NCBI GenBank assembly: GCA_003222235.1
Contig: QHVD01000026.1
Location: 1 to 34,577, forward strand
Source of the DNA: Gemmatimonadota bacterium
GTDB taxonomy: Bacteria; Gemmatimonadota; Gemmatimonadetes; Gemmatimonadales; GWC2-71-9
Direction: 5' to 3'
DNA: 34,577 nt
The translations under genes and the position numbers were made by a program. The notes below the pieces were generated by a model that made no database searches, had not been told where the DNA came from, and saw only the letters and a program-made list of their open reading frames with translations. This document shows positions 12,901 through 34,577 of this stretch, one piece after another. The stretch's first letter is position 1; each line of letters starts with the position of its first letter.

Positions 12901-12921
12901 GTGTGCAAGTTGTGCGGTTTG
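12901..12921. promoter_or_regulatory. GTGTGCAAGTT-GTGCGGTTT-G motif upstream of P1, in inverted orientation relative to the P2/P3 copies
   Basis: The plus-strand sequence here resembles the minus-strand reading of the 11785 and 12392 motifs. A TTGCAC-17-TAAGGT promoter-like pair lies on the gene-sense strand just upstream. Confidence 0.3.
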
Positions 12922-13010
12922 CCCGGAGCTACACACCACAACCTTAGCATAACCCGGAGGACCGTGCAACCGGGAACGCCGCCCGTGGGCTCCTCCCCCG
13001 GGGCTCCGCG

Positions 13011-13436
13011 TCACCCCTCGCCCGTCATTGCCGCCGCGAGCGCGCGGATCGGCGTCGGGCGAGGATCAACGCCTCGATACGTCCACGGCAGATCGATCTG
13101 CTCCCTGAACGTCGGCATTTCGGTCCACGAGTTGAACACGTGCGCCACCTCGTGCCGCGCCGGCACCGCGCCTGTGCGCGTCGGTCAAAGAGCTCCGGGT
13201 TGCGCTGTTCGACCGCGTACGGAAATCCCGCGGGAGCCACCGGAAGAAACGGTCGAGCATACGCCGCAAGCACGTCCTCTGAGGGCGGCTCGTAAAACGC
13301 GCTGTCGATCCCCACCCAGGTCGACGCTGAACTCGACGGTGTGCGGGATCCATTTGCCGAGCTCAACCAGGTTCGCTGGAGGAGGCGGCAGCGCGGTGAC
13401 ATCGTCGAAGAAGCGGGGATGGTCCCGGCTGGCCAT
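13011..13436 (-). pseudogene. Decayed gene read in three frames (weak DUF72/UPF0759-like resemblance)
   Basis: Three frames each hold a protein-like piece. One reads MASRDHPRFFDDVTALPPPPANLVELGKWIPHTVEFS. One reads WVGIDSAFYEPPSEDVLAAYARPFLPVAPAGFPYAVEQRNPELFD. One reads VPARHEVAHVFNSWTEMPTFREQIDLPWTYRGVDPRPTPIRALAAAMTGEG*. No single frame is open across the span. Confidence 0.4.
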
Positions 13437-13480
13437 AGAAGTTGAAGTATAGCAACATGTTATCTCTCTAGAAACCGGCC

Positions 13481-13514
13481 TTGCGGCCCTTACAATCTTC
13501 GGGATATATTCGGG
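13481..13514 (+). promoter_or_regulatory. Putative promoter of the imuB-dnaE2 cassette (TTGCGG-18-TATATT) with the same embedded 19-nt motif (candidate SOS/LexA-type operator)
   Basis: TCTTCGGGATATATTCGGG at 13496-13514 is identical to 9648-9666 and overlaps the -10. It lies 20 nt upstream of the imuB ATG. imuB/dnaE2 cassettes are classically LexA-regulated. Confidence 0.5.
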
Positions 13515-13533
13515 TCCCTCTTGGGTGCTCTAG

Positions 13534-14832
13534 ATGGCGCGAAATCACCTGACGAGCTCCTCCGCCGTCTGCTGCTGGATACCGCTATTCGCGCTGCGCT
13601 GCGAAGCGGCGCGGCGACCCGAGCTCGGGTCCCGGCCCAGCGCGCTCGTCGCACCCGACGATACCCGCAGGGTGTGGCAGGTCTCGCCGCTCGCCCGGCA
13701 TGCGGGCGTGAAGCCCGGGATGACCGTCAGCCAGGCGATCGGTCTATGCCACACGCTCCTGCTGTGCGAAGCCGACCCGGTCTATTACGACGAGCAGTTC
13801 GCTCGACTGCTCTCCGCCCTGGGAGCGGTGAGTCCCGTCATCGAGGCGCCCGAGCTGGGCAGGGTGTTCGTGGGGACGGACGGGTTGGAAGGGTTGTATG
13901 GGGGGCCGGAACGGATCGCGGATGCGATCAAGTGCGGAGTGCGGAGTGCGGAGTGCGGAATTTCAATGCAAGCTCGTTCGCCACGACACTCACCTGAAAA
14001 CTCCGCATTCCGCACTCCGCATTCCGCACTCCGGGTGGGGTGGGGCATGGGCAAGTTCGTCTCCTGGGTGGCCGCGACCCGCGCCAAGCCAGGTGGCGCG
14101 GTCATCGTTCGCCCCGGGGAGGAGGGGAAGTTCCTCGCGGCGCAGCCGCTGGCCGTGTTGCCGCTCGATCCGGACACGCACCGCCGGCTGCGGCTGCTCG
14201 GGCTCCGCACGATTGGGGACCTCGCGGCGCTTCCGGAGGAAGCGGTGGTCTCGCAGCTCGGTCGCGCCGGGCGCCGCCTGTGGCGGCTCGCGGCGGGCGA
14301 GACCGCGGAGCGGGTCGTCGGCCGCGAGGCGCCTGAGCCGATCACCGCCGCCATCGCCTATTTCTCTCCGGTTGCCGAGCGGGAACTGCTCGCGCACGCG
14401 CTGGAGCAGCTGATCGAGCGCGCGCTCAGGCACCCGCGCCGCGCCGGCTGGCGGGTACAGGTGCTGCGTGCGCGCGCCGAGCTCGAGCACGGCGCGTCGT
14501 GGCTCGCCGAGGCGACGCTCAAGGACCCGTCGGCGGACCGGGATCGCATCGCCGCGCCGCTCAAGACGCGCCTCGAGCAGGCGCCCCCCACCGGGGCCGT
14601 GGAGCGGCTCGCCGTCGAGTTCACCGGGTTCGCGCCGGGCACCACCGAGCTGCAGCTCTTCGCGCGCGACGCGCGCGCCGCCGCCCGGGCCGGCCGACGC
14701 CGCGCGCTCCGCACCGCCGTCCACGAGATCAAGCTCCGGCTCAAGCGCCCGATGCTGTACCACGTCATCGCCGTCCAGCCATGGTCGCGCATCCCCGAAC
14801 GCCGCTACGCGCTGATCGACTATGAACCCTAG
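13534..14832 (+). CDS. imuB: ImuB, Y-family-polymerase-like component of the ImuB/DnaE2 mutasome; catalytic-fold part only, truncated by a repeat-borne TAG
   Basis: The N-terminus reads AVCCWIPLFALRCEAARRPEL...VSPLARHAGVKPGMTVSQA...DPVYYDEQF...SPVIEAPELGRVFVGTDGLEGLYGG. The gene sits directly upstream of dnaE2. It contains an in-frame ~35-codon repeat insert (CGVRSAECGISMQ...[12 protein letters not shown]). Confidence 0.85.
   Translation: MARNHLTSSSAVCCWIPLFALRCEAARRPELGSRPSALVAPDDTRRVWQVSPLARHAGVKPGMTVSQAIGLCHTLLLCEADPVYYDEQFARLLSALGAVSPVIEAPELGRVFVGTDGLEGLYGGPERIADAIKCGVRSAECGISMQARSPRHSPENSAFRTPHSALRVGWGMGKFVSWVAATRAKPGGAVIVRPGEEGKFLAAQPLAVLPLDPDTHRRLRLLGLRTIGDLAALPEEAVVSQLGRAGRRLWRLAAGETAERVVGREAPEPITAAIAYFSPVAERELLAHALEQLIERALRHPRRAGWRVQVLRARAELEHGASWLAEATLKDPSADRDRIAAPLKTRLEQAPPTGAVERLAVEFTGFAPGTTELQLFARDARAAARAGRRRALRTAVHEIKLRLKRPMLYHVIAVQPWSRIPERRYALIDYEP
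13931..14033. repeat. Hairpin-type heptamer element inside imuB: (AGTGCGG)x4 - 41-nt spacer - inverted 31-mer
   Basis: The left arm is 13931-13958 (+aat). The right arm, 14000-14030 (actccgcattccgcactccgcattccgcact), is identical to 21683-21713. The arms pair with G:T (G:U) wobbles. The element is read through in frame. Confidence 0.9.
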
Positions 14833-14861
14833 TGCGGAATGCGGAGTGCGGAATGCGGAAT
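14831..14861. repeat. 31-nt heptamer element AGTGCGGAATGCGGAGTGCGGAATGCGGAAT (left copy of a perfect inverted pair)
   Basis: The reverse complement of 15164-15194 is identical, 31 of 31. The preceding T plus the element's first AG form the imuB stop TAG (14830-14832). Confidence 0.95.
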
Positions 14862-15125
14862 AGGCCTGACAGGCTTCGGGCGCTAAATGTGCCGCAACGG
14901 GTGGAGGTGGAGCTGGACGAACGCGGGGTGCCGGCGTTCGTGAAACCGAAGACGGGAAACGGGAAACGGATCGAGTCCATCGGCGAGACCTGGCGCATCG
15001 ACGACGAGTGGTGGCGACGACCGATCTCGCGTCGCCATGTCGAGGCGATCCTGGAGAGGGGTAAGCGGGTGGTGCTGTTCGAGGATCTGATGACGGCCGA
15101 GTGGTGGATGCAGATGCCGACATAA
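14832..15125 (+). CDS. Stand-alone ImuB C-terminal domain (split from imuB)
   Basis: LNVPQRVEVELDERGVPAFVKP...IGETWRIDDEWWRRPISRRHVEAILERGKRVVLFEDLMTAEWWMQ matches my recollection of the ImuB C-terminal block (ERIxxEWW...RDY...LFRD...WFLHG). GTG 14832 overlaps the imuB TAG as TAGTG. Alternative starts are ATG 14853 and GTG 14889. Confidence 0.6.
   Translation: MRNAECGMRNRPDRLRALNVPQRVEVELDERGVPAFVKPKTGNGKRIESIGETWRIDDEWWRRPISRRHVEAILERGKRVVLFEDLMTAEWWMQMPT
14952..14970. repeat. AACGGGA-family heptamer array (about 2.5 units) inside the ImuB C-terminal ORF
   Basis: gacgggaaacgggaaacgga encodes KTGNGKR. The same family occurs at 17674-17708. Confidence 0.7.
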
Positions 15126-15126
15126 C

Positions 15127-15194
15127 GCGGCATTCGGAATGCGGCAGCGAAGCCCGACCTTCGATTCCGCATTCCGCACTCCGCATTCCGCACT
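15127..15194. repeat. Hairpin-type heptamer element between the ImuB-C ORF stop and the dnaE2 ATG (degenerate left arm, palindromic spacer, perfect 31-mer right arm)
   Basis: The element reads gcggcattcggaatgcggcag - cgaagcccgaccttcg - attccgcattccgcactccgcattccgcact. It ends one base before ATG 15195. Confidence 0.9.
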
Positions 15195-18100
15195 ATGTAT
15201 ATCGAACTTCACTGCCACTCCGCCTTCTCGTTCCTCGACGGCGCCTCACTCCCCGAGCAGCTCGCGCTCACGGCCGCGCAGCTCGGCTACCCGGCGTTGG
15301 CGCTCACCGATCACAACGGCCTGTACGGCTCGATGGCGTTCGCACAGGAGGCGAAGCACCTCGGCCTGCAGGCGATCACCGGCTCGGAAGTGACGCTGCT
15401 CGACGGCTCGCACGTGACGCTGCTCGCCGAAACGCCCGAGGGGTACGCGAACCTGTGCCGGCTGATCACCGAAGCACATCTGGGCCGTGTCGACCGCCGC
15501 GACCCGCGACTCGACTTCGCTTCGCTCGAGCGGCGGCACGAGGGGCTCGTCGTACTCTCCGGCTGCCGCGCCGGACTGCTCGCAACCGTGCTCGAGAAGG
15601 AAGGCCGCGCCGCCGCCCGGAGGCTGCTTGAGCGCTGCCGTGCCGAGTTCGGGAAGGAGAGCTTCTTCGTCGAGCTCCAGCGCAACCTGGTCCGCGGCGA
15701 TCGCGACCTTACGCGCGCACTCTGCGATCTCGCGGATCGCGTACAACTTGGCGTCGTAGCGACGGGGAACGTGCACTATCACACGCGCGAGCGGCATCGG
15801 CTGCACGACGTGCTCGTCGCGATCCGGCACCGCGCGACGCTCGACGGCTCGCACGACGTGCGGCGACCGAACAGCGAGTTCTCCCTGCGGCCGCCCCAGG
15901 AGGTCGCGGCGCTCTTCTCCGATCGGCCCGACGCGGTCGCGAACACCGGCGTGATCGCCGAGCGCTGCGGGACGTTCGACCTGACGCGCGACCTCGGCTA
16001 CGTCTTTCCCGACTTCCGTGGCGCAGGCCGGACGTCCGCCCCGCAGGCCCTGGCCGAGCTGTGCCGCACGAGGCTAGAGGAGCGCTATCCCCCGGGTTCC
16101 GCCCACCGGGACGAGGCCGAGCGGCGCCTCGAGCAAGAGCTGGCGCTCATCGAGCGCCATCGACTCAGCGGGTTCTTCCTGGTCTATCACGACCTCTTCG
16201 ACCTGGCCCGCGAAGTGGCGGCGGATGTGCGCCGGGGTACCCGGCGGGCCCACGGGAACCTGCTCCCCGGCCGCGGCCGCGGCTCGTCGGTGTCGTCCAT
16301 CGTATGCTACCTGCTCGGCCTGTCGCACATCGACCCGGTCGCGAACCGGCTGTTCATCGGGCGATTTCTCAACGAGACCCTCGCGTCGGTGCCCGACATC
16401 GATCTCGACTTCCCGCGCGAGATCCGCGAGGAGCTGATCCGCCGGGTCTACAGGCGCTACGGCGACGAGCACGTCGGGCTCGTCTGCTCGTTCCCCACCT
16501 ACCGGCTCCGCTCGGCGGTGCGAGAGATCGGCAAGGCGCTGGATCTGCCGCTGGGAGAGATCGAGCAGACGGCGAAACTGGCGGACCGGCGGTCGGGCGG
16601 GGGCGGACTGGCGGACGAGTTGGACCAGCTCCCGGGCTTCGAGGGACGGCGCACGGCCCCGCTCTGGAAAGAGCTTTGCGAGCTGGCCGAGGAGATCACG
16701 GGGCTGCCCCGCCACGTGTCGCAGCACGTCGGCGGGATGATCATCTCGAGCCGGCCTCTCGTCGAGCTCGTGCCGCTCGAGCGCGCGGCGATGGAGGACC
16801 GCGTCGTGTGCCAGTGGGACAAGGACTCCTGCGACGACGCGCGCTTCATCAAGATCGATTTTCTCGCGCTCGGCATGTTGTCGCTGGTGGAGGAGTGCGT
16901 CGAGCTGGTCGCCGCGGGCACGGGGACGCCGCCCGACCTCTCCCGCATTGATTTCGATGACCCCGCGGTCTACGACCGCATCTGCCGCGGCGACACCGTG
17001 GGGCTGTTCCAGATCGAGAGCCGCGCGCAGATCCAGATGATCCGCCGCACCCGGCCGAAGAACCTCGAAGACTTGGCCGTCGAGGTGGCGATCGTGCGGC
17101 CGGGGCCGATCGTGGGCGGCGCCGTGAACCCGTACGTGCGCCGCCGTGAGGCGCAGCGCCGCGCCGAAGCCGAGGGGCGCCGCTACGAGCCGCCGGTGGA
17201 CCACCCGCTCCTGAAGCCCGTGCTGGCGGAGACGCTGGGCGTGATTCTCTATCAGGACCAGGTGTTGCAGGTGTGCCAGGCGCTGGCCGGGTTCACGACC
17301 GGGCAGGCCGAGGCGCTGCGCCGCGCGATGAGCCGCCGGCGCAGCCGCGAGCTGATGGCGGGGTTCTGGGAGGAGTTCAAGGACGGGGCGGCGGCGCGCG
17401 GGGTCCCCGAGTCCGTCGCGCAGCGCGTGTTCACGCAGGTGATCGCGTTCTCCGAGTTCGGATTCCCCAAGTCCCATGCGGCGGCGTTTGGGCTGCTCGC
17501 CTACCAGTCGGCGTGGCTCCGGCACTATCACCCAGTCGAGTATTACTGCGCGCTCTTCAACAACCAGCCGATGGGGTTCTACTCGCTCGACGTGCTCGGG
17601 CGGGACGCGCAGCGCAACGGCATCGAGATCCGGCTCCCGGACGTGAACCGGAGCGACGTGTGGTGCACCATAGAACGGGAAACGGGAAACGGGAAACGGG
17701 AAACGGGGGCGGTGCGGGTGGGGCTCGGGTTCGTCCGTGACTGGAGCGAGGAGACGGCGACCGCCGTCGTGACCGAGCGCGAGCGCAACGGCCCGTTCCG
17801 GAGCGTCGGCGAGCTCGTGCGCCGCGCGCCTCCCAAGCTCAAGCGCAGCGCGATCGAGAACGTCGTGTGGGTGGGCGGGTGCGACGGCTTCGGTCTCACA
17901 CGGCGCGAGCTGTTGTGGCAGATAGGGCTGTGGCTCCCGCCCCGGGAGGAGCGCGGCGGTGACGCACGCGGCCGGCGCCAGCTCGAGCTCGCGCTCAACC
18001 ACCCGCACGAGCACTTGCGCTTCGGCGGCCTGGAGCCGGGCGAGCGGATGCTCGCCGAATACGCGGTGTTGGGGTTCGCGGTGAGCGGCCACCCGCTCGA

Positions 18101-18527
18101 GCTGCTACGCCAGGCGCTGCCGCGCGGGATGGCGAAGAGCGACGCGCTCCCGCGGCTCGAACACGGGACATGGGTCGAGGTGGCGGGCCTCGTGGTCGCG
18201 CGCCAGCGTCCCGAAACGGCGAAGGGGTTCATCTTCGTGCTGCTGGAGGACGAGGCGGGGATGGTGAACGTCATCGTACGGCCGGACGTATTCCAGCAGC
18301 ACCGCGCCGCGATCCGCGGCGAGCCGTTCCTGTGGGTGCGGGGGAAGCTCGCGAAGGACGACGGGACGGTGAACGTGGTGGCGGAGGAGGTGCGGGGACT
18401 CAGACTGAATGCGGAATGCGGAGTGCGGAATGCGGAATCGACGGGCGAGCCCACCATTCCCCATTCACCGTACGCCTTCCTGAAGACGATGCGCCGGGTG
18501 GCGCCGGAATCGAAGGATTGGGGCTAG
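15195..18527 (+). CDS. dnaE2: Error-prone DNA polymerase III alpha-like subunit DnaE2 (ImuC)
   Basis: The PHP domain reads YIELHCHSAFSFLDGASLPEQL...LALTDHNGLYG. Pol III alpha core blocks include GRGSSVSSIVCYLLGLSHIDP, DIDLDF, FQIESRAQ and RPGPIVGG. The protein is 1110 aa and lies downstream of imuB. Confidence 0.95.
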   Translation: MYIELHCHSAFSFLDGASLPEQLALTAAQLGYPALALTDHNGLYGSMAFAQEAKHLGLQAITGSEVTLLDGSHVTLLAETPEGYANLCRLITEAHLGRVDRRDPRLDFASLERRHEGLVVLSGCRAGLLATVLEKEGRAAARRLLERCRAEFGKESFFVELQRNLVRGDRDLTRALCDLADRVQLGVVATGNVHYHTRERHRLHDVLVAIRHRATLDGSHDVRRPNSEFSLRPPQEVAALFSDRPDAVANTGVIAERCGTFDLTRDLGYVFPDFRGAGRTSAPQALAELCRTRLEERYPPGSAHRDEAERRLEQELALIERHRLSGFFLVYHDLFDLAREVAADVRRGTRRAHGNLLPGRGRGSSVSSIVCYLLGLSHIDPVANRLFIGRFLNETLASVPDIDLDFPREIREELIRRVYRRYGDEHVGLVCSFPTYRLRSAVREIGKALDLPLGEIEQTAKLADRRSGGGGLADELDQLPGFEGRRTAPLWKELCELAEEITGLPRHVSQHVGGMIISSRPLVELVPLERAAMEDRVVCQWDKDSCDDARFIKIDFLALGMLSLVEECVELVAAGTGTPPDLSRIDFDDPAVYDRICRGDTVGLFQIESRAQIQMIRRTRPKNLEDLAVEVAIVRPGPIVGGAVNPYVRRREAQRRAEAEGRRYEPPVDHPLLKPVLAETLGVILYQDQVLQVCQALAGFTTGQAEALRRAMSRRRSRELMAGFWEEFKDGAAARGVPESVAQRVFTQVIAFSEFGFPKSHAAAFGLLAYQSAWLRHYHPVEYYCALFNNQPMGFYSLDVLGRDAQRNGIEIRLPDVNRSDVWCTIERETGNGKRETGAVRVGLGFVRDWSEETATAVVTERERNGPFRSVGELVRRAPPKLKRSAIENVVWVGGCDGFGLTRRELLWQIGLWLPPREERGGDARGRRQLELALNHPHEHLRFGGLEPGERMLAEYAVLGFAVSGHPLELLRQALPRGMAKSDALPRLEHGTWVEVAGLVVARQRPETAKGFIFVLLEDEAGMVNVIVRPDVFQQHRAAIRGEPFLWVRGKLAKDDGTVNVVAEEVRGLRLNAECGVRNAESTGEPTIPHSPYAFLKTMRRVAPESKDWG
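17674..17708. repeat. Tandem heptamer array (AACGGGA)x5 inside dnaE2, read in frame
   Basis: gaacgggaaacgggaaacgggaaacgggaaacgggg encodes ERETGNGKRETG. Confidence 0.9.
18408..18470. repeat. 31-mer heptamer element (30/31 to 14831-14861) plus a degenerate inverted arm, in frame near the dnaE2 3' end
   Basis: aatgcggaatgcggagtgcggaatgcggaat (18408-18438) is followed by cgacgggcgagcccacc and then attccccattcaccg. It encodes [21 protein letters not shown]. Confidence 0.85.
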
Positions 18528-19119: not shown

Positions 19120-20034
19120 TCACGGTTGGGGGCTTGCTGGCACGGCGATCGCCCCCGTCGGCCATTCACCGTCGAGGAAGCGCCGCATTGCCGCCAGGAC
19201 CGGCTCGGGTTGCTCAACGTAGAGCGCATGTCCCGCGCCGGGGAACATCATCAACCGCGCATTGGGCATTCGCTCGGCCCACACCCGCGCCCCTTCCGGC
19301 GGCGCGATGAGATCCCGATCGCCGTGCATCACGAGGGCCTCGGCCGTGATCGAGCCGGCCTGGTCCCGGAAGTCCCACTCGCCCAGCGACCGATCCACGT
19401 GACCATACCACGCAAATAGCTGCTCCGGTCGCTCGTTCGGCAGATCGCAGAAGTCCACCGGGAAACGATCGGCGAGCGCCGGGTCACCCACGTACACCGG
19501 TGCGTTCGCCCTCCAAAACCGGCGGCAAAAGCCCTCCGGGTCGCGCTTGCTCGCACCCGACTGGAGCAGGCGGGCGACCTCCTGCGCGGCCGGCGTCCTG
19601 ACTCGGAGCGCCTTCTCGGGGGGGTTGTAGGAGCGGCCGAGAGCCGCGGAAGGCGCCATAGCGCCGAGCGCAACCAGTCGACTGACACGGTCTGGGTGCT
19701 CCGCCGCGTACACCGCCGCGATCGCGCCGACGTAGGAAAAGCCCACGAGCGCCATGCGCTCGAGTCCGAAGTGGCGTCGCACCGCCTCGACGTCGGTGAG
19801 GTCGTGCGTGATGCCGATCCGCGCGGGGTCGCGCACCGCGTCCGAGCGGCCGCGACCGCGCAGATCGTAGAAAATCAGGCGCTGGCCGTCGGCGAGCGGC
19901 CCGAGCGGGCCCGCGAGGTAGACGGCAAGGGGAACGACGACCGCCTGGGAACCGCTGCCGCAGAGCTGGTAATGGAGGCGCAGGCCCTCTTCGGCCGGTA
20001 GCCAGCCCTCCGAGCGGGCGGCCCCACGCATCAT
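19120..20034 (-). CDS. Alpha/beta-fold hydrolase (proline-iminopeptidase-like)
   Basis: The oxyanion region reads [10 protein letters not shown]. The nucleophile elbow reads [34 protein letters not shown] and GAGH lie near the C-terminus. The ATG overlaps the lhr stop as ATGA. Confidence 0.8.
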
Positions 20035-23000
20035 TCGCGCAGTGAGGCCGGCCGGGGGCGGGGGCGGGGGCGGGTCTTTCCGAGATAGGTCCGCACCAGG
20101 GGCGCCACCCGGCGCTGGACCAACGCGGTCCTGATCTGTTGCTCTGCTTCTGGGCTAGCCTCGACCAGTAACTGCACGCCGCGCCCTTCGCCTTCCTGGA
20201 TCGCGATCGGGATGCCGTCGCGATAGAGCACGTGGTTCGTCGCGACCGCGGGCAGCGGGTTCCCGGCCGTGAGAATGCCGACGAGATTGAGCGGATCCGC
20301 CCCGCTCACCGCGACGAGCTCGCCGCTCGGGTCCTGGCGTCGCACGGAGCGGAGCAGTCCCACCGCCTCTGCAAGCGCGTACTGCTCGCCCGAGAACCCC
20401 GCGACGAAGCGGCCGCCGCGGATCTCGCCGCGCGCCTCGAGCCGGCGGTAGGCCCGCAGGACGTCCCGCCACGGCGGCAGCGGGGATTCACGCGTCACGA
20501 GCCGCCGGAAGACTACGCCGTAGCGTCGGAGCAGCTGCCGGGCGACGGCTTCCGCGACCTGGTCTTCCGGCAAGAGCGTCGACCGCGGCACGCGCGACCA
20601 CCGGCCGGCGGTCTCGACCCCGAACGGCGCGACCTTGCCGTGGCGGCGGAACCCGCCGATCGGCCGGCGCCGGTCGGATGGGACCAGCAGCGCCCGCAGC
20701 CCCGCGAAGCTGTCCGAGGTGACGAGCCCCCAGGCCACGAGCTCGCCGAGGCCCTTCTCGACCTCGGTCCGCAACAGTCCCGTCGCGCTCACGAGATCGC
20801 CGAAGAACGATGCGCCGCGCCGATCGAGCGCGTCGAGTAGCGCCCGCGCCGCGTGCGACAGAGGCAGCTCCCCGGACTCGGGGCTCACCGCGAGCGATCG
20901 CCACACGTCTCCTCGCTCCCGTCGAAACAGCGCGACGGGCGTCGAGCGGACGGGTCCAGCCTTGCGACCCCCCCCACCCCCCCCGCCCCCCCCACCGTTC
21001 AGGATGGTGCGCGGCGCCACTGCGGCGAGCCTCCCCCAGGCGATCTCCCCCGACAGGCAGAGCCCGTCGAGCCACAGGGGATCGTACTCCCGCAACCGCG
21101 CCGGCAGCACGTCCGTCTCCCACGCGCCAGCGGCAACCTCGCACCCGTCGAGCAGGTCGAGCACCGCCGCGAGCCCCTCGGGTCCCTCGGCGCGGGATTC
21201 GTCTGCAACCCGCTGCCACTGGAAGAGGAAGCGGGTGAAGTCGGCGGCGGTGACCGGCTCGATCTCCTTGCGCAGCCGGTCCAGGGTGTAGCGATGAATG
21301 CGGGCGAGGAGGCGGCGCTCGCACCACTCCAGCTCGCTCGTGCCGGGGGTGAACCGGCCGCGCAGCACGAACCCTTCGTGCTCGAGCGCGCCGAGGGCGA
21401 AGTCCACGTCGGCTACCGGCACGCCGAGCGCCGTCGCGACCGCCGCCGCCGTCGTCGGCCCGACAACCTCGAGCCGGCCCCGCACGAGCTCCCGCAGGGC
21501 GTCCTCGCGCGTCCAGCTCCTCGCCCGCTCGCGCTCGGGCGGCGTGAGCGCCGGCTCGCAGCGCGCGCCCGGGAACACCGCCGCGAGCATCGGCAGGCGC
21601 TCGGCCGCAAGCCACAGTCCTGCGCCCGCCTGAAGCACGCCGGCCCGCCCGGCCTGGACGAGCTGCCCGAAATACCCCTGCCACTCCGCATTCCGCACTC
21701 CGCATTCCGCACTCGGGAGGGCACCGGTGACCAGCAACGCATCGTGCAGCTCGTCCGCGGAGCTGACGTCGGGCCAAGCTTCGTCCTTCACCCGGTCGAT
21801 CGCCGCCTGGTCGAGCTTGCCGAGCTCGTCCGCCGTCTTCACGTCGAGCCCGCGGCGGGTGATCACGGCCTGGGTGCGGCGCTCCTCCAGCGGGGCGTCG
21901 TCCAGGAACGCGTACGGCTTCGCGTTCAGCGCCTCGTGCGACAGGGGCGACGGCTCCGCCGTGTCGCGCGCGACGAGCGCGAAGCGCCCCGCCTCCATCT
22001 CCTCGAGCACGCGCTTGAGTCCCGGGAAGTCCATCGCCTCGAGCAGGCAGTCCTCGATCGTCTGCTTCACGAGCGGATGGTCGGGGATCTCCCGGTCGCC
22101 CACCAGGTTCTCGGGGCAGGCGAGCTGATCGGGAAAGATCGCCGCGACCAGGTCTTCGGCCTCCATCCGCTGCAGCGGGGTGGGCACCTTCTTCCCACCG
22201 CGCTGGCGCAGCACGGCAAGTGCCCGGGTGGCGTTCCAGCGCCAGCGTGACTGGAACATCGGCGCGTCGAGCATCGCCTGGACGAGCAGCCCCTCGACCG
22301 TCGCGGGCTTCAAGTACTGGAATACGTCCTCGAGCGGGAAGCTGTGCTGAGGCCCGAGCGAGAGGACGATCGCATCCTCGGTCGCCGCGGCCTGCAGCTC
22401 GAAATTGAAGCTGCGGCAGAAGCGCTTCCGCAGGGCGAGCCCCCAGGCCCGGTTGACCCGGCTCCCGAACGGCGCGTGCAGCACGAGCTGCATCCCGCCT
22501 GCCTCGTCGAAGAACCGCTCGACCACGATCGTCTGCTGCGTCGGGATCACGCCGAGGATCTGCTTCGAGGCAGCGAGATACTCGACCATCTGGCGCGCGG
22601 CGGGCTCCGGGAGCCCCGGGATCTCGCGACCCACCCACGCCACGGCCGACTGGGGATCCGCGAGCCGATCGGAGATGTCCTGGCGCAGCCGCGACACGGC
22701 CTCCGACAGCTCCGCCGTGCGCGCCGGCGCCTCGCCGACCCAGAACGGGATGGACGGCGGCTGCCCCTGCGCGTCCACGACCCGCACCTGGCCCGACTCG
22801 ATCTTGCGAATGAGATAGGAGGTGTTGCCGAGCTGGAAGACGTCGCCCGGCATGCTCTCGATCGCGAAGTCCTCGTTGAGCGTGCCGACGAACGTGTCGG
22901 TGGGCTCGAGCACCACCCGGTAGTCGCCGATGTCGGGGATGGCCCCTCCCGACGTTATCGCCGCGAGTCGGGCGCCGCGACGGGCCCGCAGCCGGCCGTT

Positions 23001-24425
23001 CACCCCGTCATAGTGAACGTAGGCGCCGCGCCGGCCGCGCCGCGTGGTGAAGCCCTCGGCGAGCATCTGCACGACGTCGTCGAAGTCCTTGCGCGAGAGG
23101 TCGCGGTAGGGATAGGCGCCGCGCACGAGCTCGTACAGCGCCCCTTCGTCCCACTCTTCGCATGCCACCGCCGCCACGAGCTGCTGAGCCAGGATGTCGA
23201 GCGGGCGCCCCGGGATGATCAGCCGGTCGAGCCGGCGCTCGCGCGCGGCGCGGACCAGCGCCGCGCACTCGATCAGCTCGTCACGCGACAGCGGAAAGAT
23301 CCGCCCCTTGGGTACCGCTCCGAGGTGATGTCCCGACCGGCCCACCCGCTGCAGCAGCGTGGCGATCGAGCGCGTCGAGCCGATCTGGCAGACCAGGTCC
23401 ACCGCGCCGATGTCGATCCCGAGCTCGAGCGACGCCGTGGCGACGAGCGCCTTGAGCTTTCCCTCCTTGAGCCGCTGCTCCGCCTCGAGGCGCTTATCAC
23501 GAGACAGGCTGCCGTGATGCGACGTGACGTGCTCGGCGCCGACGCGCTCGGAAAGGTGCATCGTCATGCGCTCGGCGAGCCGGCGGGTGTTCACGAACAC
23601 GAGTGTGGTGCGGTGTTCGCCGATGAGCTGGGCCAATCGGTCGTACAGCTCCTCCCACACTTCCGCCGCCATCACCGCCTCGAGCGGCGAAGAGGGGATC
23701 TCGATCGCGAGGTCGAGCTGCCGGGCGTGGCCCGAGTCGATAATGCAGGTGTCGGGTGTCGGGTGTCGGATGCCCGCCAGGAAAGCGGCGATCTCCTCGA
23801 TCGGCTTCTGGGTCGCGGACAGACCGATGCGCTGGAGCGAGCGGCCCGCCAGATGCTCCAGCCGCTCGAGAGAGAGCGCGAGGTGGCTGCCGCGCTTGTC
23901 CCGCGCCACGGCGTGGATCTCGTCCACGATCACCGTGCGCACCGTGCGGAGCATCGCACGCGCGTTTTGGGACGTGAGGATGAGATACAGCGACTCGGGA
24001 GTCGTGACGAGGATGTGCGGCGGACGCTTCGCCATCGCCTGGCGGTCGGGCTGCGGCGTATCGCCCGTGCGAACGAGCGTGCGGATCTCCACGTCAGGCA
24101 GGCACAACTGCTCCAGCGTGCCGCGGATCTCGGCGAGCGGCTCGGCGAGGTTCTTCTGAACGTCGTTCGAGAGCGCCTTGAGGGGAGAGACGTACACCAC
24201 CTGGGTCTCGTCCCCCAAGGTGCCGTCCAGCCCCTGACGAAGCAGGGAATCGATCGCGGCGAGGAACGCCGCGAACGTCTTCCCCGAGCCCGTGGGGGCC
24301 GCGATCAGCGCGTGCCGGCCGGCCTGAATGATCGGCCAGGCGCCACGCTGCGGCTCGGTCGGATCGCGGAACCGCGACTCGAACCAGCGCGCGACGACGG
24401 GATGGAAGCCGGAGAGCGTCATCAC
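20031..24425 (-). CDS. lhr: Large ATP-dependent helicase Lhr (SF2 DEAH, Lhr core plus long C-terminal region)
   Basis: Motifs [35 protein letters not shown] and LELGIDIG...RVGRSGH. The protein is 1464 aa. It carries the in-frame inserts [11 protein letters not shown] and G10, and an RPRPRPRP tail. Confidence 0.9.
20053..20074. repeat. (CGGGGG)x3+ hexamer array encoding the RPRPRPRP tail of Lhr
   Basis: The sequence reads ccgggggcgggggcgggggcggg. Confidence 0.85.
20968..20996. repeat. (C8-N)x3 nonamer array encoding a Gly10 run in Lhr
   Basis: The sequence reads ccccccccaccccccccgccccccccacc. The homopolymer runs of 8 are also error-prone in sequencing. Confidence 0.85.
21683..21713. repeat. 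31-mer heptamer element (inverted orientation) in frame inside lhr
   Basis: actccgcattccgcactccgcattccgcact is identical to 14000-14030 and matches the reverse complement of 14831-14861 at 30 of 31 positions. Confidence 0.9.
23748..23769. repeat. (GGTGTCG)x3 heptamer array in frame inside lhr
   Basis: ggtgtcgggtgtcgggtgtcgg encodes HPTPDT on the minus strand. Confidence 0.85.
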
Positions 24426-28642: not shown

Positions 28643-31231
28643 CTAGCGCCCCCGATGCCTGCCCCCCCGCCCCAGCCGTGCCCCATGCGCGACCTGCTTC
28701 CCCCGCTCCCGCCGCTCCCCGTCCGCGCGCCCGCCCTCGCCGAGTTGGCGCCGCAGGTCATCGAGGGTATCCGAGCGCAGCGCCTCCCGTTTCCCACGCA
28801 CCACGGTGAACCGGACCGGCCGGTCGAAGGCGGGGAGGTCCCGCACCTGGAGTCGCCGCGCTTGGCCCTCCTTGAGTCGCAGCCGCACGACGCCGACGCC
28901 GTTCTCCACCTCGTACTCCAAGGGGACCCGATCGCCGTACAGGTGGGCCGACGACGGCAGCGCCTCGAGTGCCTGCCGCGTGGCGACGGGGATGGTCTCG
29001 TCCACGTCGAGTGTAATCCGCGTTTCGATGAAGTTCTGCCAGGACGCCACGCTGTCGAGCTGCCGCCCGAGCCGCGCGGCAATCTGCTCGGTCGCGGCCT
29101 CTGCCAGCCGGCCGCCGGAGCGGCGCCAGTAAAACCCGAACCGCTCGAGCGCCCGCCGCACCCGCGTCTGATCGGGGTGAGGCGTGTGGCCCGCGAGCAG
29201 GGAATCGACCAGCGCCGCCCGAGCTGAGCCCGCGAGCTCCTGCGGGAACGGGTTCGGCAGGGGCTCCGCGTCCCGCTCGAGGAGGAACCCCGAGTATTCC
29301 ACGGTCCGGACCACGATGAGCCCTTCCCGCCGTCGCTGCCGTTCGAATGCGACCGTGGGTGCTCCGCGCCGACTGTAGCGGCGGATGGCGCGCGCTGGGA
29401 CGTGGGTGCCTTCGATGCTCGCGCGGGGCACGCCGAACCGATCGGCGAAGTAGCGCAGCGTCCCCGCGACCGCTCCCCGGGTGCCGCACATGGAGCCCCG
29501 GCTCACCCGGACTTCGCGGCCGTCGGCGGTCTCTTCATCGATCACCAAGTCGAACGGCATCACGCGCGCGACGAGGTCGGCGAACGCGGAGACGGTCTTC
29601 TCCCCCGCGTAGGGCAGCTGCTCGGGCAGGCTGAGCTCGAGCTGCCGGTACACGGACGCGGTTCCGAGCGCCACGTCCTCGATCGCCTTCACGAGCACGC
29701 CACGCCCTTCCGCCCAGGAGTCAACCGACTCGTGGAACAGATGGCGCGCCAGGCCGTAGACCTCCCCCAGGTAGCCGTGCTTGTTGACCGCCTCGGCGTA
29801 GACGTTGTAGGCCGTCAGATGATCGCTCCCCGCCACGGCGAGGCCTCGCAGGTTCCGCTCCTCACGGGTCATACGATGCAGGGACTCGATGTTCGCGGCC
29901 ACCGCCACGACCGGGATCAACTCGGCATCCGCGTGATACAGCAACTCGCCCCACGGCCGCTCGACCGGCATCGCCTCGACCTCGCGCCCGTAGCGCGTCA
30001 GCCGTCCGTTTTCGACGAGCCCCCGCTCGGTCAGGACGTCCACGGCATCCCGGTAGGCCCGCCGGTCCAGCGGCACGGGGAGATCGAGATCCCGCGCATC
30101 GACGCCCAGCGCGGCGCACGTGATCGCCACGCGCTCCGCGTCCCCGGCGAGTTGGAACTCGGGTGCGGTGGGCTGGAGACGCTCGAAGGCGAGATCGCGG
30201 TCGCTCAGGATGTAGACCTCGCCGCGTTCCACGCGCCCGTGCACGCGACCCGCCATCTGGAGGATTTCGTTGGCGCCGAGGTACAGCCGCGTCAGCACGT
30301 TGCGGCCGCGCTCGACGACGTTCGCGTAGCGCGCGTCGTAGATCACGACGGTGTCGAGCCCGCGGATGTTGAGCGCGGATTGGCCGGCGGCGGTCATGGC
30401 CAGGAGAAAGGGGCGCCTCACCTGGCCGTCCAGAAAGGGGCGGATGACCCGGATCGGCTCCCCGCCGTGGTAGAACGCGGTCGCCAGAGCCTGCCACCGA
30501 TCGCCAAGCTCCTTCGCGATCTGCTCCACCTCCGCCCGCGTGGGGACGAACACCGCCACCCCGCGACGCTCGCGGATCACCCGTCGGACGAAGGGTTCGT
30601 TGAGAAACTCCAGCGCCTGCTCCGGCAGCACGCGCACATCGGCGGCCCTGGCCGGATCGAACGCGTGCGTCTCGAGCACCTCGATCGAGGCGAGGTAGCG
30701 CGCGTAGAACGTCGGGTCCACGGTCGCCGACAGCCAGATGAAGCGGCACCGTGCCCGCTTGCCGAGCGCGAGGCAGAGCTCGAGCTCCGCCGAGGTCTGA
30801 TGGATCTCGTCCACGACCAGGGTGTCCCGGTCGGTGATGAGCCCGTCCTCGAACCAGCGCCGCGCGATGCCGGTGGTAACGATGACGACGTTCCAGGTGG
30901 GCGTCTCGGGGGTCGCTTCGCGCTCGCGGTTCACGACGCCGACTTTGAGCGGCGCGCCCAGGATCGTCGCCGCGATCGGCCGGATGGCGAGGGTCTTCCC
31001 GGTCCCCGTCCCGGCCACGATCCCGAACCCGCGGCCCGACGCCGCGAGACGCCGGATGTCGGCGCCGTGCTCCCGCTCGAGCAGCGTCTCGATGTCCAGG
31101 GTCATGGCGAGCTCGATCGTCTCGCACGCCGCCCGGGTGGGGGCGATGACGATGACCCGTCCGGTCGCGGGCTCCGCCGCGAGGAACGCTTGAGGATCGG
31201 GGGGGAGAAAATGATCGCGGGAGATGCGCAC
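28643..31231 (-). CDS. DEAH/RHA-family (HrpA/HrpB-like) ATP-dependent helicase, divergent
   Basis: Motifs GIVAGTGTGKT, LVVDEIHQ, WLSATV, TAAGQSALNIRGLDTVVIYD and QMAGRVHGR. The C-terminal region VPLEYEVENGVGVVRLRL is reminiscent of the HrpA C-terminal domain. The GTG start at 31231 lies 74 nt after the pfkA stop. The 1250-aa track ORF upstream of it is an out-of-frame overlap of pfkA. Confidence 0.85.
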   Translation of the reverse strand: MRISRDHFLPPDPQAFLAAEPATGRVIVIAPTRAACETIELAMTLDIETLLEREHGADIRRLAASGRGFGIVAGTGTGKTLAIRPIAATILGAPLKVGVVNREREATPETPTWNVVIVTTGIARRWFEDGLITDRDTLVVDEIHQTSAELELCLALGKRARCRFIWLSATVDPTFYARYLASIEVLETHAFDPARAADVRVLPEQALEFLNEPFVRRVIRERRGVAVFVPTRAEVEQIAKELGDRWQALATAFYHGGEPIRVIRPFLDGQVRRPFLLAMTAAGQSALNIRGLDTVVIYDARYANVVERGRNVLTRLYLGANEILQMAGRVHGRVERGEVYILSDRDLAFERLQPTAPEFQLAGDAERVAITCAALGVDARDLDLPVPLDRRAYRDAVDVLTERGLVENGRLTRYGREVEAMPVERPWGELLYHADAELIPVVAVAANIESLHRMTREERNLRGLAVAGSDHLTAYNVYAEAVNKHGYLGEVYGLARHLFHESVDSWAEGRGVLVKAIEDVALGTASVYRQLELSLPEQLPYAGEKTVSAFADLVARVMPFDLVIDEETADGREVRVSRGSMCGTRGAVAGTLRYFADRFGVPRASIEGTHVPARAIRRYSRRGAPTVAFERQRRREGLIVVRTVEYSGFLLERDAEPLPNPFPQELAGSARAALVDSLLAGHTPHPDQTRVRRALERFGFYWRRSGGRLAEAATEQIAARLGRQLDSVASWQNFIETRITLDVDETIPVATRQALEALPSSAHLYGDRVPLEYEVENGVGVVRLRLKEGQARRLQVRDLPAFDRPVRFTVVRGKREALRSDTLDDLRRQLGEGGRADGERRERGKQVAHGARLGRGGRHRGR

Positions 31232-31305
31232 GGCTGAATACAAGGTAACCGGTGCGGCAAGCGCAAACGGCCGCGGCGGCCGCGCCGCGGCGGCCGGTGC
31301 GCCCG

Positions 31306-32376
31306 TCAGTCTCCCAGGCTGATGCCGAGATCCCGCGCGGTGGCGATGGTGTCGGAGTCGAGCGGCACGCGTTTGGGGGTGGCGAGCGCCTCGTCGATGG
31401 CCACGAAGTCGAACGTCGGGGGCCGGAGGGCGACCATGTTCCCGAACTTGCCCTCGGCGATGAGGCGCACCGCGGCGGCGCCGAACCGCAGCCCGAGCAG
31501 GCGGTCGAACGTCGTGGGACTGCCGCCCCGCTGCAGGTGGCCGAGCACCAGAGTGCGCGTCTCCTTGCCCGTCATTGCCTCGATCGAGTTCGCGACCTTG
31601 TCGGCGACGCCGCCCAGACGCTCGTGCACCGGGTCGATGAGCGATACGGTCCCACCCTTGGGCGCCGCCCCTTCCGCCGCCACCACGATGCTGAAATGGC
31701 GGCCCTCGACCTCGCGCCGGCGGATCTTCTCGCACACCTTCGCGAGATCGAAGGGGATCTCGGGGATTAGAATCACGTCGGCCGAGCCGGCTATCCCTGA
31801 GTGCAGCGCGATCCACCCGGCATACCGGCCCATCACCTCGACCACCATGACGCGCTCGTGGCTCTCGGCCGTCGAATGGACCTTGTCGATCGCGTCGGTG
31901 GCGGTCTGGACCGCGGTGTCGAACCCGAAGGTCGCCACCGTGCCGCCGACGTCGTTGTCGATCGTCTTCGGAACGCCGACGACCGGGATGCCCTTCTCGC
32001 GGAACAGTCGCTGCGCGATGCGCAACGAGCCGTCGCCGCCGATGGCGATCAGCGCGTCGATCTCGAGCGTCCGGAACGCTGCGACAAGCTCGTCGGAGCG
32101 GTCGCGCTCGACCGAGGCACCACCGGACCGGGATGTAGGCCAGCGGAAGGGATCGCCGCGATTGGTGGTCCCCAGGATGGTGCCGCCGAGATGGGTGATG
32201 CCGCGCACCGCGTTCGCGTCGAGCGGGACGACACGATCCTCCCCGAGCAGCCCGCCGTAACCGCGTCGGATGCCGACGCATTCCCAGCCGCGATGGAGCG
32301 AAGCGAGGACGGCGCCGCGGATGACGGCATTGAGGCCGGGCGCATCGCCGCCGCCGGTGGAGATGGCGATCTTCAA
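31306..32376 (-). CDS. pfkA: 6-phosphofructokinase (PfkA family)
   Basis: Motifs KIAISTGGGDAPGLNAVIRG, IGGDGS, VGVPKTIDNDV and MGRYAGWIAL. The TTG start overlaps the upstream selenoprotein stop as TTGA. Confidence 0.9.
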   Translation of the reverse strand: MKIAISTGGGDAPGLNAVIRGAVLASLHRGWECVGIRRGYGGLLGEDRVVPLDANAVRGITHLGGTILGTTNRGDPFRWPTSRSGGASVERDRSDELVAAFRTLEIDALIAIGGDGSLRIAQRLFREKGIPVVGVPKTIDNDVGGTVATFGFDTAVQTATDAIDKVHSTAESHERVMVVEVMGRYAGWIALHSGIAGSADVILIPEIPFDLAKVCEKIRRREVEGRHFSIVVAAEGAAPKGGTVSLIDPVHERLGGVADKVANSIEAMTGKETRTLVLGHLQRGGSPTTFDRLLGLRFGAAAVRLIAEGKFGNMVALRPPTFDFVAIDEALATPKRVPLDSDTIATARDLGISLGD

Positions 32377-32615
32377 CGCGATGGAGGCGGCGCAACCTGC
32401 TGCATCAGCCGCAGGACTTCTCCCGGCTCGGCGTGGCGGCCCACGGCTTTTTTCGAGAAGATCCGGCGCCCGTCTACCTCGACCTCGAACACGCCGCCGG
32501 AAGACTGGATAAGCTTCACGTCGGCGTGCGGATACACCTTGCGCAGTTCGGCCGCCAGACCGGCGGCTCGGGGCTCATAATTTCAGACGACGCAGTATTC
32601 GATCGTGACTCGCAT
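32373..32615 (-). CDS. SelW/Rdx-family selenoprotein (80 aa) with in-frame UGA (Sec) at 32583-32585
   Basis: The protein reads MRVTIEYCVV-U-NYEPRAAGLAAELRKVYPHADVKLIQSSGGVFEVEVDGRRIFSKKAVGRHAEPGEVLRLMQQVAPPPSR*. The CxxU redox motif and the GGxFEVxVDGxxIFSK block are the Rdx signature. The track shows only the N-terminal fragment, as the tail (...MRVTIEYCVV*) of the spurious 242-aa ORF 32583..33311. Confidence 0.75.
32551..32567 (-). promoter_or_regulatory. SECIS-like hairpin downstream of the UGA
   Basis: On the sense strand, GCCGCC-GGUCU-GGCGGC begins 15 nt after the UGA. From memory, the apical GGUCU resembles the loop of the E. coli fdhF SECIS. Confidence 0.55.
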
Positions 32616-32680
32616 ACGAATGATGAAGAATAGTCGCGCTTGACACCCGGCGCCACAGTCCCGAGCTTGCGCGACAATCC

Positions 32681-32989
32681 ATGAGCCTGCTCCTCCGCCT
32701 GAAGGCGTCTCCGGGGTTGCTGGTGCAGGGGCTCGTGTCGCTCGCGGCCGGGCTCGCGTCCGGATGGGCGGCGATTGGGTACGCTTCGGGGCGGGCGAAC
32801 GTCGGCTCCACGCTCGGGCTCGAGTTCCTAATCCTCGTCGGGGTCGGCGCGCTGACCCGGGGTTACGGCATCGCGCTCCCGGGCAATGGCTTCTCTTCCT
32901 ACGTCTTGGGCGTGACGACGTTCGCAGTGCTCGACGGCACGTGGAGGCTCGCCGCCGTCGTAGCGCCGCTCGCGCTCGCGCCCACGTGA
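32681..32989 (+). CDS. Membrane protein (about 3 TM), probably the detached N-terminal part of the downstream sensor
   Basis: Hydrophobic segments include [34 protein letters not shown] and [26 protein letters not shown]. The stop overlaps GTG 32986 as GTGA. Confidence 0.5.
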
Positions 32990-34548
32990 CGGCCGGGAGC
33001 GCCGTCGCCGGCCTCGTATATGAGCGGCTGGGCGGCGCCACGGGCACGCAGGCGCTGGCCACCGTGAACCTCGGCGCGCTGGCCGCCCTGCTCGTGCTGC
33101 TGCCGGTCGCGGTGAATGCCTCGCTGTACCTCGAGCTCGCGCTCGGCCGCCCGCTCGCGTCGCTGGACTCCGGGCTCACGGCACGCTGGGAGGCGATCGT
33201 GTACGCGTGCTCCGCAGCGCTGGCACTCGGGTGGCTGCGCCTGACCCACGCCGGTCTCGAGAGCGCGGACGCGCTCACCTTGGCCGCCGTGCTCGCGGTT
33301 GCGACCGTCACGAGCGCCTACGTGATCCGCAGAGCCGTACGCGCCGACGAGCTGGAGCTGCTCCAGGGGCTATCGCAAGCAATTGCCGGGGACTTGAGCC
33401 TCGCCAGGAGCTTCGCGCGCATCCAGAATCTCACTCGGCGGCTGGTCCCCTGGGAGCAGATGTGCTTTGCCCGCTACGACCCGCGCACCAATCAGATGGA
33501 GCTCGTCGCCGACACCGCGGCGGGAGCGAGGGGCGGAGCAGCGGGAGCGGCCGTCGAAACCGGGCGCCCGCAGCTCCGGTTCGATGCGACCGCCGGGGCG
33601 ACGGTCGAGGCGGTGCGGCTGCGGCGTCCGGTGGTCGCCGCGCCCGAGGCCGGCCTGGGAGGGGGGATCGTCCCCGGCCGAGAGACACCAGGTTCCGAAG
33701 TTCTCGTGCCCCTGTATCACGCCGGCGAGCTCGTCGGCCTGTGGAGCGTGCGCCATTCCCGACCCCGGATCTACCAGGACAGGGACGCGGCGCTCTTGGC
33801 CCTGCTCGCGCCGCAGCTCGCGCTCCTGCTCGCGATCGAAGCCTCCGTGCAGCCGGTGGCGGGGGCCTCGGAGCGGACCGGCGCTTTCGTCCAGACGCTG
33901 CGCGCCACGGCGCGGCACATCCACGCCTCGAGCCAGGGGGTGACGGCGGCAGCGCAGCGCTCCAGCCACGGTGCCCGGCAGGCGGCAAGCATCCTGACCT
34001 CGCTCGGGCGTGATTCTGAGCAGCTGCAGCGCCACGCCGGGGCGGTCGCCGAGGCCGGGGACCAGACCCGGCAATCGGGCGCGCAGATGGACAAGACCAC
34101 CGACAGGGTCCGGCTCGCCACGCAGGCCGCCGTCCGCCGCCTCACCGACCTGGGCGCGACGACCGAGGAAAGCGCAAATGAAGTCCGCCGGCTGCGGGAC
34201 GTCGCCGAGCAGGTGGAGAAGTTCTCGGAGACGATCGGCCTCGTCGCGAACCAGACCAACCTGCTGGCCCTCAACGCCACGATCGAGGCAGCCCGCGCCG
34301 GTGTGCACGGGCGCGGCTTCGGGGTGGTCGCCGACGAAGTCCACAAGCTGGCGGAGGCGAGCGGGCGCGAGGCGCGCAACGTCGGCAAATCCGCTCAGGA
34401 CACGCGCAAGGCCCTAGACCGAGCGGCGCAACTCCTCGAGCGGATCCGCACGGAACTGAGCGCAGTCGCGCAGGGCTCGGCGGACTGGGTCGGGGACCTG
34501 GACCACATCCCCGAGGCCGCCTCGCAGACCGCACGCGCCGGAAAGTAG
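32986..34548 (+). CDS. Membrane-anchored GAF-domain protein with a methyl-accepting chemotaxis (MCP) signalling domain
   Basis: TM segments come first, followed by a GAF-like region ([20 protein letters not shown]...[17 protein letters not shown]). The MCP hairpin core reads [43 protein letters not shown]. The part of track ORF 32764 upstream of 32986 is not protein-like. Confidence 0.8.
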
Positions 34549-34577
34549 GTCGTACACATGGCGGGAGAGGTCATGGA

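Follow-up and report, generated by a model that had tools for sequence, protein, structure and literature searches.

A probable selenocysteine-encoding SelW-like gene with a SECIS-type hairpin, overlapping the phosphofructokinase gene in a soil Gemmatimonadales bacterium

Does an in-frame TGA codon inside a small gene of a soil Gemmatimonadales bacterium end translation, or is it read as selenocysteine (Sec)? The codon lies at positions 32583-32585, on the minus strand, of a contig of 34,577 nucleotides (GenBank QHVD01000026.1, assembly GCA_003222235.1), the whole of which we call the window. A preliminary description, made from the sequence alone, had joined the frames on the two sides of this TGA into a hidden gene for a SelW/Rdx-like protein, with a hairpin resembling the bacterial selenocysteine insertion sequence (SECIS), and had proposed that the gene is translationally coupled to the neighboring phosphofructokinase (PFK) gene, pfk. 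Having compared the locus with its relatives, we consider it probable, at about 0.88, that this is a genuine Sec-encoding SelW-like gene which has been misannotated and which carries a canonical bacterial SECIS element. Translation confirms that reading through the TGA gives a continuous frame from the ATG at 32615 to the TGA at 32373. The 81 codons of the minus strand translate as MRVTIEYCVV, a stop, NYEPRAAGLAAELRK...GGVFEVEVDGRRIFSKKAVGRHAEPGEVLRLMQQVAPPPSR and a final stop; in other words, the internal TGA is followed by NYEPRAAGLAAELRKVYPHADVKLIQSSGGVFEVEVDGRRIFSKKAVGRHAEPGEVLRLMQQVAPPPSR up to the second TGA at 32375-32373, and the redox motif reads C8-V-V-U11. The parts of the gene on which the argument is built are the following.

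32373..32615, minus strand: full coding sequence (CDS) of the SelW-like (Rdx family) predicted selenoprotein, 80 sense codons including the predicted Sec-11, plus the TGA stop
32613..32615, minus strand: ATG start codon, invariant in 40 Gemmatimonadota sequences; codon periodicity begins here
32592..32594, minus strand: TGC, Cys-8, the first residue of CxxU; invariant column C8; in the model of a 76%-identical homologue, strand beta1 ends with it
32583..32585, minus strand: in-frame TGA, predicted Sec-11, the second redox position of CxxU; TGA in 79 of 80 loci
32549..32570, minus strand: SECIS-type hairpin of 8 bp with A32568 bulged and the apical loop GGUCU at 32561-32557

That the locus encodes an 80-residue thioredoxin-like Rdx (SelT/SelW/SelH) protein, with a predicted Cys8-x-x-Sec11 centre, is supported by both profile and structure comparisons. 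In the profile searches, for which Sec (U) was read as Cys, three profiles scored above their curated cut-offs, in accordance with the family assignment made earlier: Pfam Rdx PF10262 (E=2e-20, 73.2 bits against a cut-off of 22.6), the NCBIfam equivalog NF041051 'SelT/SelW/SelH family (seleno)protein' (103.8 bits against 88) and TIGR02174 CXXU_selWTH (62 bits against 34.2). Sequence matches in the PDB were the SelW-related Atu0228 (2fa8, 2.3e-9), SAV_2001, 2obk and MIEN1. The structure was modelled with AlphaFold2 (AF2) on P0002, a Cys homologue 76% identical to the window protein. This model, with a mean predicted local distance difference test (pLDDT) of 92.9, has the thioredoxin-like topology beta1(2-8)-CxxC-alpha1(14-27)-beta2-beta3-beta4-alpha2, in which the redox motif falls between strand beta1 (E2-8) and helix alpha1 (H14-27). 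Its TM-score is 0.91 to 2fa8, 0.72 to MIEN1 (2ljk) and 0.67 to mouse SelW (2npb), and ordinary thioredoxins rank after the Rdx-type structures. The Cys-containing Rdx structures (Atu0228 2fa8, SAV_2001 3dex, 2obk and 2p0g) are alike in fold, with TM-scores of 0.84-0.91 for the P0002 model at 26-40% identity, but their motif is CxxC instead of CxxU, a SECIS is absent and they exceed the window protein in length by about 20-25 residues. The thioredoxin-like Rdx fold, with an equally placed CxxU or CxxC, is also found in mammalian selenoprotein W and MIEN1 (Rdx12); these differ from the window protein in the location of the SECIS, which in mammals is in the 3' untranslated region (UTR), and in sequence, mouse SelW being a weak PDB match (E=0.34). 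It is known that eukaryotic SECIS elements lie in the 3' UTR and are differently structured (PMC1088965).

The evidence that carries the Sec reading is comparative. We scanned for related loci, taking one genome per species, with patterns made from the Cys version of the protein, so that TGA was not favoured, and 80 loci were returned. The nearest are metagenome-assembled genomes (MAGs) of soil Gemmatimonadales with up to 93-95% amino acid identity; the window protein itself is 93% identical to Gemmatimonadales MAG loci, and the window is assigned to this order accordingly. At the codon aligned with 32585-32583, 79 of the 80 loci have TGA and one, L078 (Nitrospirota), has Cys. The loci span at least 8 phyla, and the predicted Sec forms occur in Gemmatimonadota, Acidobacteriota, Actinomycetota, Chloroflexota, Bacillota, Cyanobacteria, Planctomycetota and Betaproteobacteria, the Bacillota form coming from an isolate, Marinithermofilum abyssi. 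The 40 Gemmatimonadota sequences all keep the ATG and the TGA. In them, variability at codon positions 1/2/3 is 0.06/0.035/0.225 over the 10 codons before the TGA and 0.04/0.007/0.23 over the 14 codons after it, and 0.50/0.49/0.48 in the 45 nt upstream of the ATG, where periodicity is absent. Variation dominated by the third position on both flanks of the TGA indicates one translated frame running across it. When the relatives were compared for an unrelated or non-coding frame past the TGA, the downstream frame showed coding conservation instead. The earlier placement of Sec at the second position of CxxU is therefore upheld by the retention of TGA in 79 of the 80 loci, by the coding signal on either side and by the Cys/Sec pairs found among close homologues.

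The second line of evidence is the hairpin, which had been described as GCCGCC-GGUCU-GGCGGC, fifteen nucleotides downstream of the TGA, with a loop like that of E. coli fdhF. It is present at 32567-32551 (GCCGCC at 32567-32562, GGUCU at 32561-32557 and GGCGGC at 32556-32551), starting 15 nt past the TGA, and the stem is lengthened by the pairs C32570-G32549 and G32569-C32550; from the UGA it is 21 nt to the start of the loop. Over the 45 nt that start at the UGA, all 80 sequences align without gaps, and pairs were counted on the explicit structure 16-24/30-37. Standard pairing is found in 86.8% of cells; a shift of the 3' partner by 1-3 columns lowers this to 13-60%. Double changes occur in six of the eight pairs, and the observed values were reached by none of 500 shuffles. 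Two of the pairs link third-codon positions, and at one such silent-site pair, columns 21-33, we counted CG 55 times, GC 6 times, UG 6 times and UA once, a covariation for which selection on the protein cannot account. At other places the protein changes together with the RNA: Ala-Ala-Gly-Leu-Ala-Ala (GCC GCC GGU CUG GCG GCC) becomes Ala-Val-Gly-Leu-Thr-Glu (GCC GUC GGU CUG ACG GAG) in Actinomycetota. Within Gemmatimonadota the third positions of the in-hairpin codons 7-10 are invariant or nearly so, with values of 0.3-0.65 in the flanking codons. The loop reads GGUCU in 57 of the 80 sequences, and one loop G (G26) is invariant.

The likeness to E. coli fdhF could be verified, as the fdhF segment of 46 nt (loop GGUCU, 18 nt after the UGA) matched fdhF at 100% in 5419 E. 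coli genomes. Both elements are stem-loops within the CDS, 3' of the UGA, with an apical GGUCU. They differ in the onset of the loop, which at 21 nt as against 18 nt is one codon further here, and in the sequence of the stem. The fdhF element carries a bulged U; in the window the bulge is an A, lower in the stem, and the loop of 5 nt is closed by a C-G pair. More generally, bacterial SECIS elements are recognized by a small apical loop with a G, in a stem directly 3' of the UGA (PMC1088965), and this is in accordance with the 8-bp stem directly 3' of the UGA and the small G-containing loop found here.

Relatives with Cys at the redox position serve as a natural control. Same-clade Cys homologues (P0002, P0003, P0007 and P0008) are full-length and 72-78% identical. 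At the codon aligned with 32583-32585 the Cys-form loci L085-L089 have TGT, and this is true of all three Cys-form lineages. TGT is one substitution away from TGA, and its use where TGC is preferred (TGC to TGT is 79:5 in the genes of the window) fits a Sec-to-Cys conversion. The hairpin is intact in one of these loci (L089), has lost the loop U in another (GGCCU, L085) and is degraded in a third (L087, with Gly changed to Ala and GCG to GCC). These states match the relaxed constraint predicted for a SECIS that is no longer needed, a pattern that is suggestive and, with three lineages, not statistical. It suggests that the Cys forms are recent Sec-to-Cys conversions, followed by decay of the SECIS.

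Several results weigh against the Sec reading. No selA, selB, selD or tRNA-Sec gene was found in the 34.6-kb window or in 568 kb of related loci: Pfam recognized no SelA, SelB or SelD among 20 window proteins, tblastn with E. coli SelA, SelB and SelD queries, which were approximate, gave no match in the 568 kb, and ARAGORN detected no tRNA of any kind in the window or in 60 loci. This says little, because sel genes need not be linked to the genes they serve. The searchable literature contains no record of Sec use in Gemmatimonadota. As for the hairpin, a single-sequence fold of 71 nt is no more stable than its shuffles (z=-0.04), and about 5% of all TGA triplets in the window, which is 70% GC, precede a comparable perfect 6-bp hairpin. 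In one sequence alone the hairpin is not beyond chance, and the decisive evidence is comparative. RNAalifold returned an empty consensus on the alignment of 80 sequences and 45 columns. Rfam gave no SECIS family in the window at the gathering threshold or in 32480-32640 at E<=10, and only a chance snoRNA; we treat both blanks as uninformative, Rfam being without a general bacterial SECIS model. Given that the UGA and a hairpin of the SelB type are conserved together in 39 species-level Gemmatimonadota genomes, a functioning Sec system would be the only economical reading.

If decoding follows the pathway established in bacteria, the SECIS would be the mRNA hairpin at 32570-32549 with its GGUCU loop. 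SelB-GTP-Sec-tRNA(Sec), bound by this hairpin, would be handed to a ribosome with the UGA at 32585-32583 in the A site, and Sec would be inserted in place of termination. At the next UGA, 32375-32373, no such hairpin is present and translation would end. The product is probably a small thiol/selenol oxidoreductase acting through a Cys-Sec selenenylsulfide. Ribosomes terminating at 32375-32373 may re-initiate at the overlapping TTG of pfk and so supply part of its translation. Two more features describe the relationship between the two genes.

31306..32376, minus strand: 6-phosphofructokinase gene (pfk), 356 aa; Pfam PF00365 E=6.6e-106, TIGR02483 PFK_mixed 433 bits against a cut-off of 430.55
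32373..32376, minus strand: TTGA stop/start overlap of 4 nt, the pfk TTG at 32376-32374 lying on the TGA at 32375-32373 of the SelW-like gene

The overlap of the stop with the TTG start of pfk, to which the preliminary description had drawn attention, is real and recurs in relatives: the same -3 offset, i.e. an overlap of 4 nt, is seen in 15 loci as TTGA, GTGA or ATGA. pfk is directly downstream in 25 of the 80 loci, all of them Gemmatimonadota, which includes 24 of the 40 loci that cluster with the window, and the adjacency persists down to about 61% PFK identity. On the minus strand, no terminator-like site was found at the junction. The two genes probably form a two-gene operon, and coupling by termination and reinitiation is plausible. 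What did not stand is the wider link with pfk, since the adjacency is not a property of the family and is absent from other phyla and from the closest relatives. In the latter (L001, L002, L004-L007 and L010) a DUF2167 gene on the opposite strand takes the place of pfk and is followed by the same helicase. This points to a recent gain or loss of pfk at this spot, and L001 and L090 have retained the stop context CGTTGAA despite the absence of pfk.

It is an even question whether the juxtaposition is simply an accident of genome compaction, with no functional or regulatory coupling. Besides its absence in the closest relatives, pfk is also missing beside the Cys-form gene L085, and outside Gemmatimonadota the neighbors are housekeeping genes with no relation to it (DAHP synthase, LemA, M48 peptidase, a threonine-dehydratase-like PALP protein and a Zn-dependent alcohol dehydrogenase, Zn-ADH). 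The neighbor that stays constant in Gemmatimonadales is the GAF/MCP gene, which is transcribed divergently. In this genome few genes (about 4 of 17) have a Shine-Dalgarno motif, so little can be read from the lack of one before pfk. An accident is harder to reconcile with an adjacency kept in 24 of the 40 Gemmatimonadota loci down to 61% PFK identity, and with a 4-nt overlap preserved with three different start codons. A functional link of a selenol oxidoreductase with PFK, however, is unsupported. We regard as distinctly unlikely the more ambitious proposal that in this subclade PFK synthesis is gated by Sec decoding, or that, alternatively or in addition, the SelW-like protein is a dedicated redox partner of PFK. 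With a weak TTG start, no Shine-Dalgarno motif and a 4-nt overlap, ribosomes would reach pfk mainly after readthrough of the UGA with Sec; if such gating were true, selenium supply or SelB activity would set PFK levels.

We return to the TGA itself, for which the best surviving alternative is readthrough of another kind. A near-cognate or suppressor tRNA could insert Trp or Cys, or TGA could be reassigned, the hairpin merely slowing the ribosome. In favour of this, no Sec machinery was found in the window or in the 568 kb of related loci, and some gene calls of the Joint Genome Institute (JGI) translate the codon as W (L090, L091, P0001, P0006, P0021, P0027, P0031, P0073 and P0100). The DNA of these records, however, has a plain TGA, as in P0001, and the JGI proteins with W, while full-length, are wrong at this residue. 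TGA is the stop of 13 of the 17 confident window genes, including the SelW-like gene itself 70 codons later, and this indicates that the code of the source organism is unchanged. The GGUCU loop and its distance from the UGA match the SelB-binding element of fdhF, and this combination of UGA and hairpin is also found in phyla with known Sec use (PMC1794560). We therefore hold readthrough without Sec to be very unlikely.

A true stop is most improbable, even though it is what the public annotation implies. On this account the product would be an internal fragment of 54-65 aa with a GTG or CTG start, and the 10 upstream codons would be a leader reading frame. Gene callers do yield just such products, in the window from the following codon.

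32535..32537, minus strand: internal GTG, taken by gene callers as the start of a 54-aa product (open reading frame 32373-32537)

Public homologues P0014-P0026 are of this kind. As had been claimed, finders of open reading frames (ORFs) miss the gene, the public calls for it being 5'-truncated fragments of 54-65 aa. The mechanical ORF list for the window splits it, the C-terminal 54 codons forming the GTG ORF 32373-32537 and the first ten codons the tail of a 242-aa ORF at 32583-33311, minus strand, ending in MRVTIEYCVV. The latter is spurious, as the preliminary description had said, because it runs antisense to the genuine GAF/MCP-domain gene. Most relatives in the databases are products of 47-65 aa beginning past the UGA, some of them, from Gemmatimonadetes MAGs, named 'hypothetical protein' or 'SelT/SelW/selH family protein', and the annotation of related contigs gives the gene as an Rdx fragment of 54 aa. 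P0026 has the same truncated start as in the window (MYPHADVKL...), is 87% identical over the shared part and reads as 54 aa on 24 contigs. Against a real product of this size, the fold modelled at pLDDT 93 would lose its strand beta1 and CxxU centre, together with part of helix alpha1, in a fragment of 54-65 aa. The codons between the TGA and the internal GTG show variation dominated by third positions and are hence translated. The called starts vary among records (V-R-K, M-A-A-E and M-Y-P), and the full-length Cys forms at 75-78% identity also weigh against a truncated product. Finally, a pseudogene in which an ordinary Rdx Cys codon has mutated to a stop can practically be dismissed: TGT or TGC to TGA is a single substitution and a neighboring window gene has an apparent frameshift, but 79 species-level genomes all have the TGA, the sequence on either side of it is under purifying selection and the hairpin co-varies.

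One upstream feature may bear on how the gene is expressed.

32630..32645, minus strand: upstream motif TGTCAAGCGCGACTAT, conserved in the window and L001-L029

This motif, TGTCAAGCGCGACTAT, sits 10-14 nt before the ATG of the SelW-like gene, where there is no Shine-Dalgarno motif. In deeper Gemmatimonadota (L032, L034, L035, L038 and L039) its place is taken by GGAGG 5-8 nt upstream of the ATG. The conserved motif could be a promoter or operator, either the -10 element of an mRNA with a very short leader or an operator common with the divergent MCP gene; a sigma-70 promoter scan found nothing. A terminator-like hairpin with a T-run lies antisense to the SelW-like gene at 32432-32445 on the plus strand; one such site was found where 0.6 is expected in shuffles, and it is probably due to chance.

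The divergent upstream gene (32681-34577, plus strand) encodes a membrane segment, a GAF domain and an MCP signalling domain and runs off the end of the window. Its reading frame changes from +2 (32681-32944) to +1 (32983 onwards), with the break near 32945-32982. Homologues of 705-729 aa are intact in L001, L081-L085 and L087; the break in the window is a true frameshift or else an error of the assembly. Downstream of pfk, a second helicase of about 850 aa (28643-31237, minus strand), for which the DEAD match is no more than faint, comes after pfk in every related Gemmatimonadales locus. Further away are a large Lhr-type helicase of 1464 aa (20031-24425, minus strand) and, at 12901-18527 on the plus strand, a 183-aa ORF with no Pfam match (12901-13452), a protein with an ImuB-like Y-family polymerase domain (13534-14832) and a DnaE2-like Pol III alpha subunit (15195-18527), which together look like an imuA-imuB-dnaE2 mutagenesis cassette.

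Both the protein family and the mechanism are already known. Bacterial SelW-like CXXU selenoproteins with a downstream SECIS were described in 2004-2006; in the Sargasso Sea data no other selenoprotein family was as abundant (48 CXXU genes), and they occur in Deltaproteobacteria, Clostridia and Actinobacteria and have few Cys homologues in Sec-using organisms (PMC1088965, PMC1794560). The gene in the window resembles these proteins (PF10262, TIGR02174, NF041051) in its length of about 75-80 residues, in the CxxU right after beta1, in the in-frame UGA with an in-CDS hairpin just downstream and in having Cys-containing homologues. It differs in its host, soil Gemmatimonadales, which the searchable selenoproteome papers do not mention, in the lineage-specific overlap with pfk and in having, in this subclade, no Shine-Dalgarno motif. 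What is modestly new is thus the host lineage, the lineage-specific pfk overlap and the unusually clear selection at the RNA level.

From these results, the gene would imply selenocysteine decoding of UGA in a soil lineage that is abundant and largely uncultured. It and dozens of its orthologues in Gemmatimonadota MAGs have been deposited without their active site, which is straightforward to correct. The locus is also a teaching case of how RNA structure constrains a coding sequence, through covariation at silent sites, frozen synonymous positions and, after what appear to be Sec-to-Cys conversions, decay of the hairpin.

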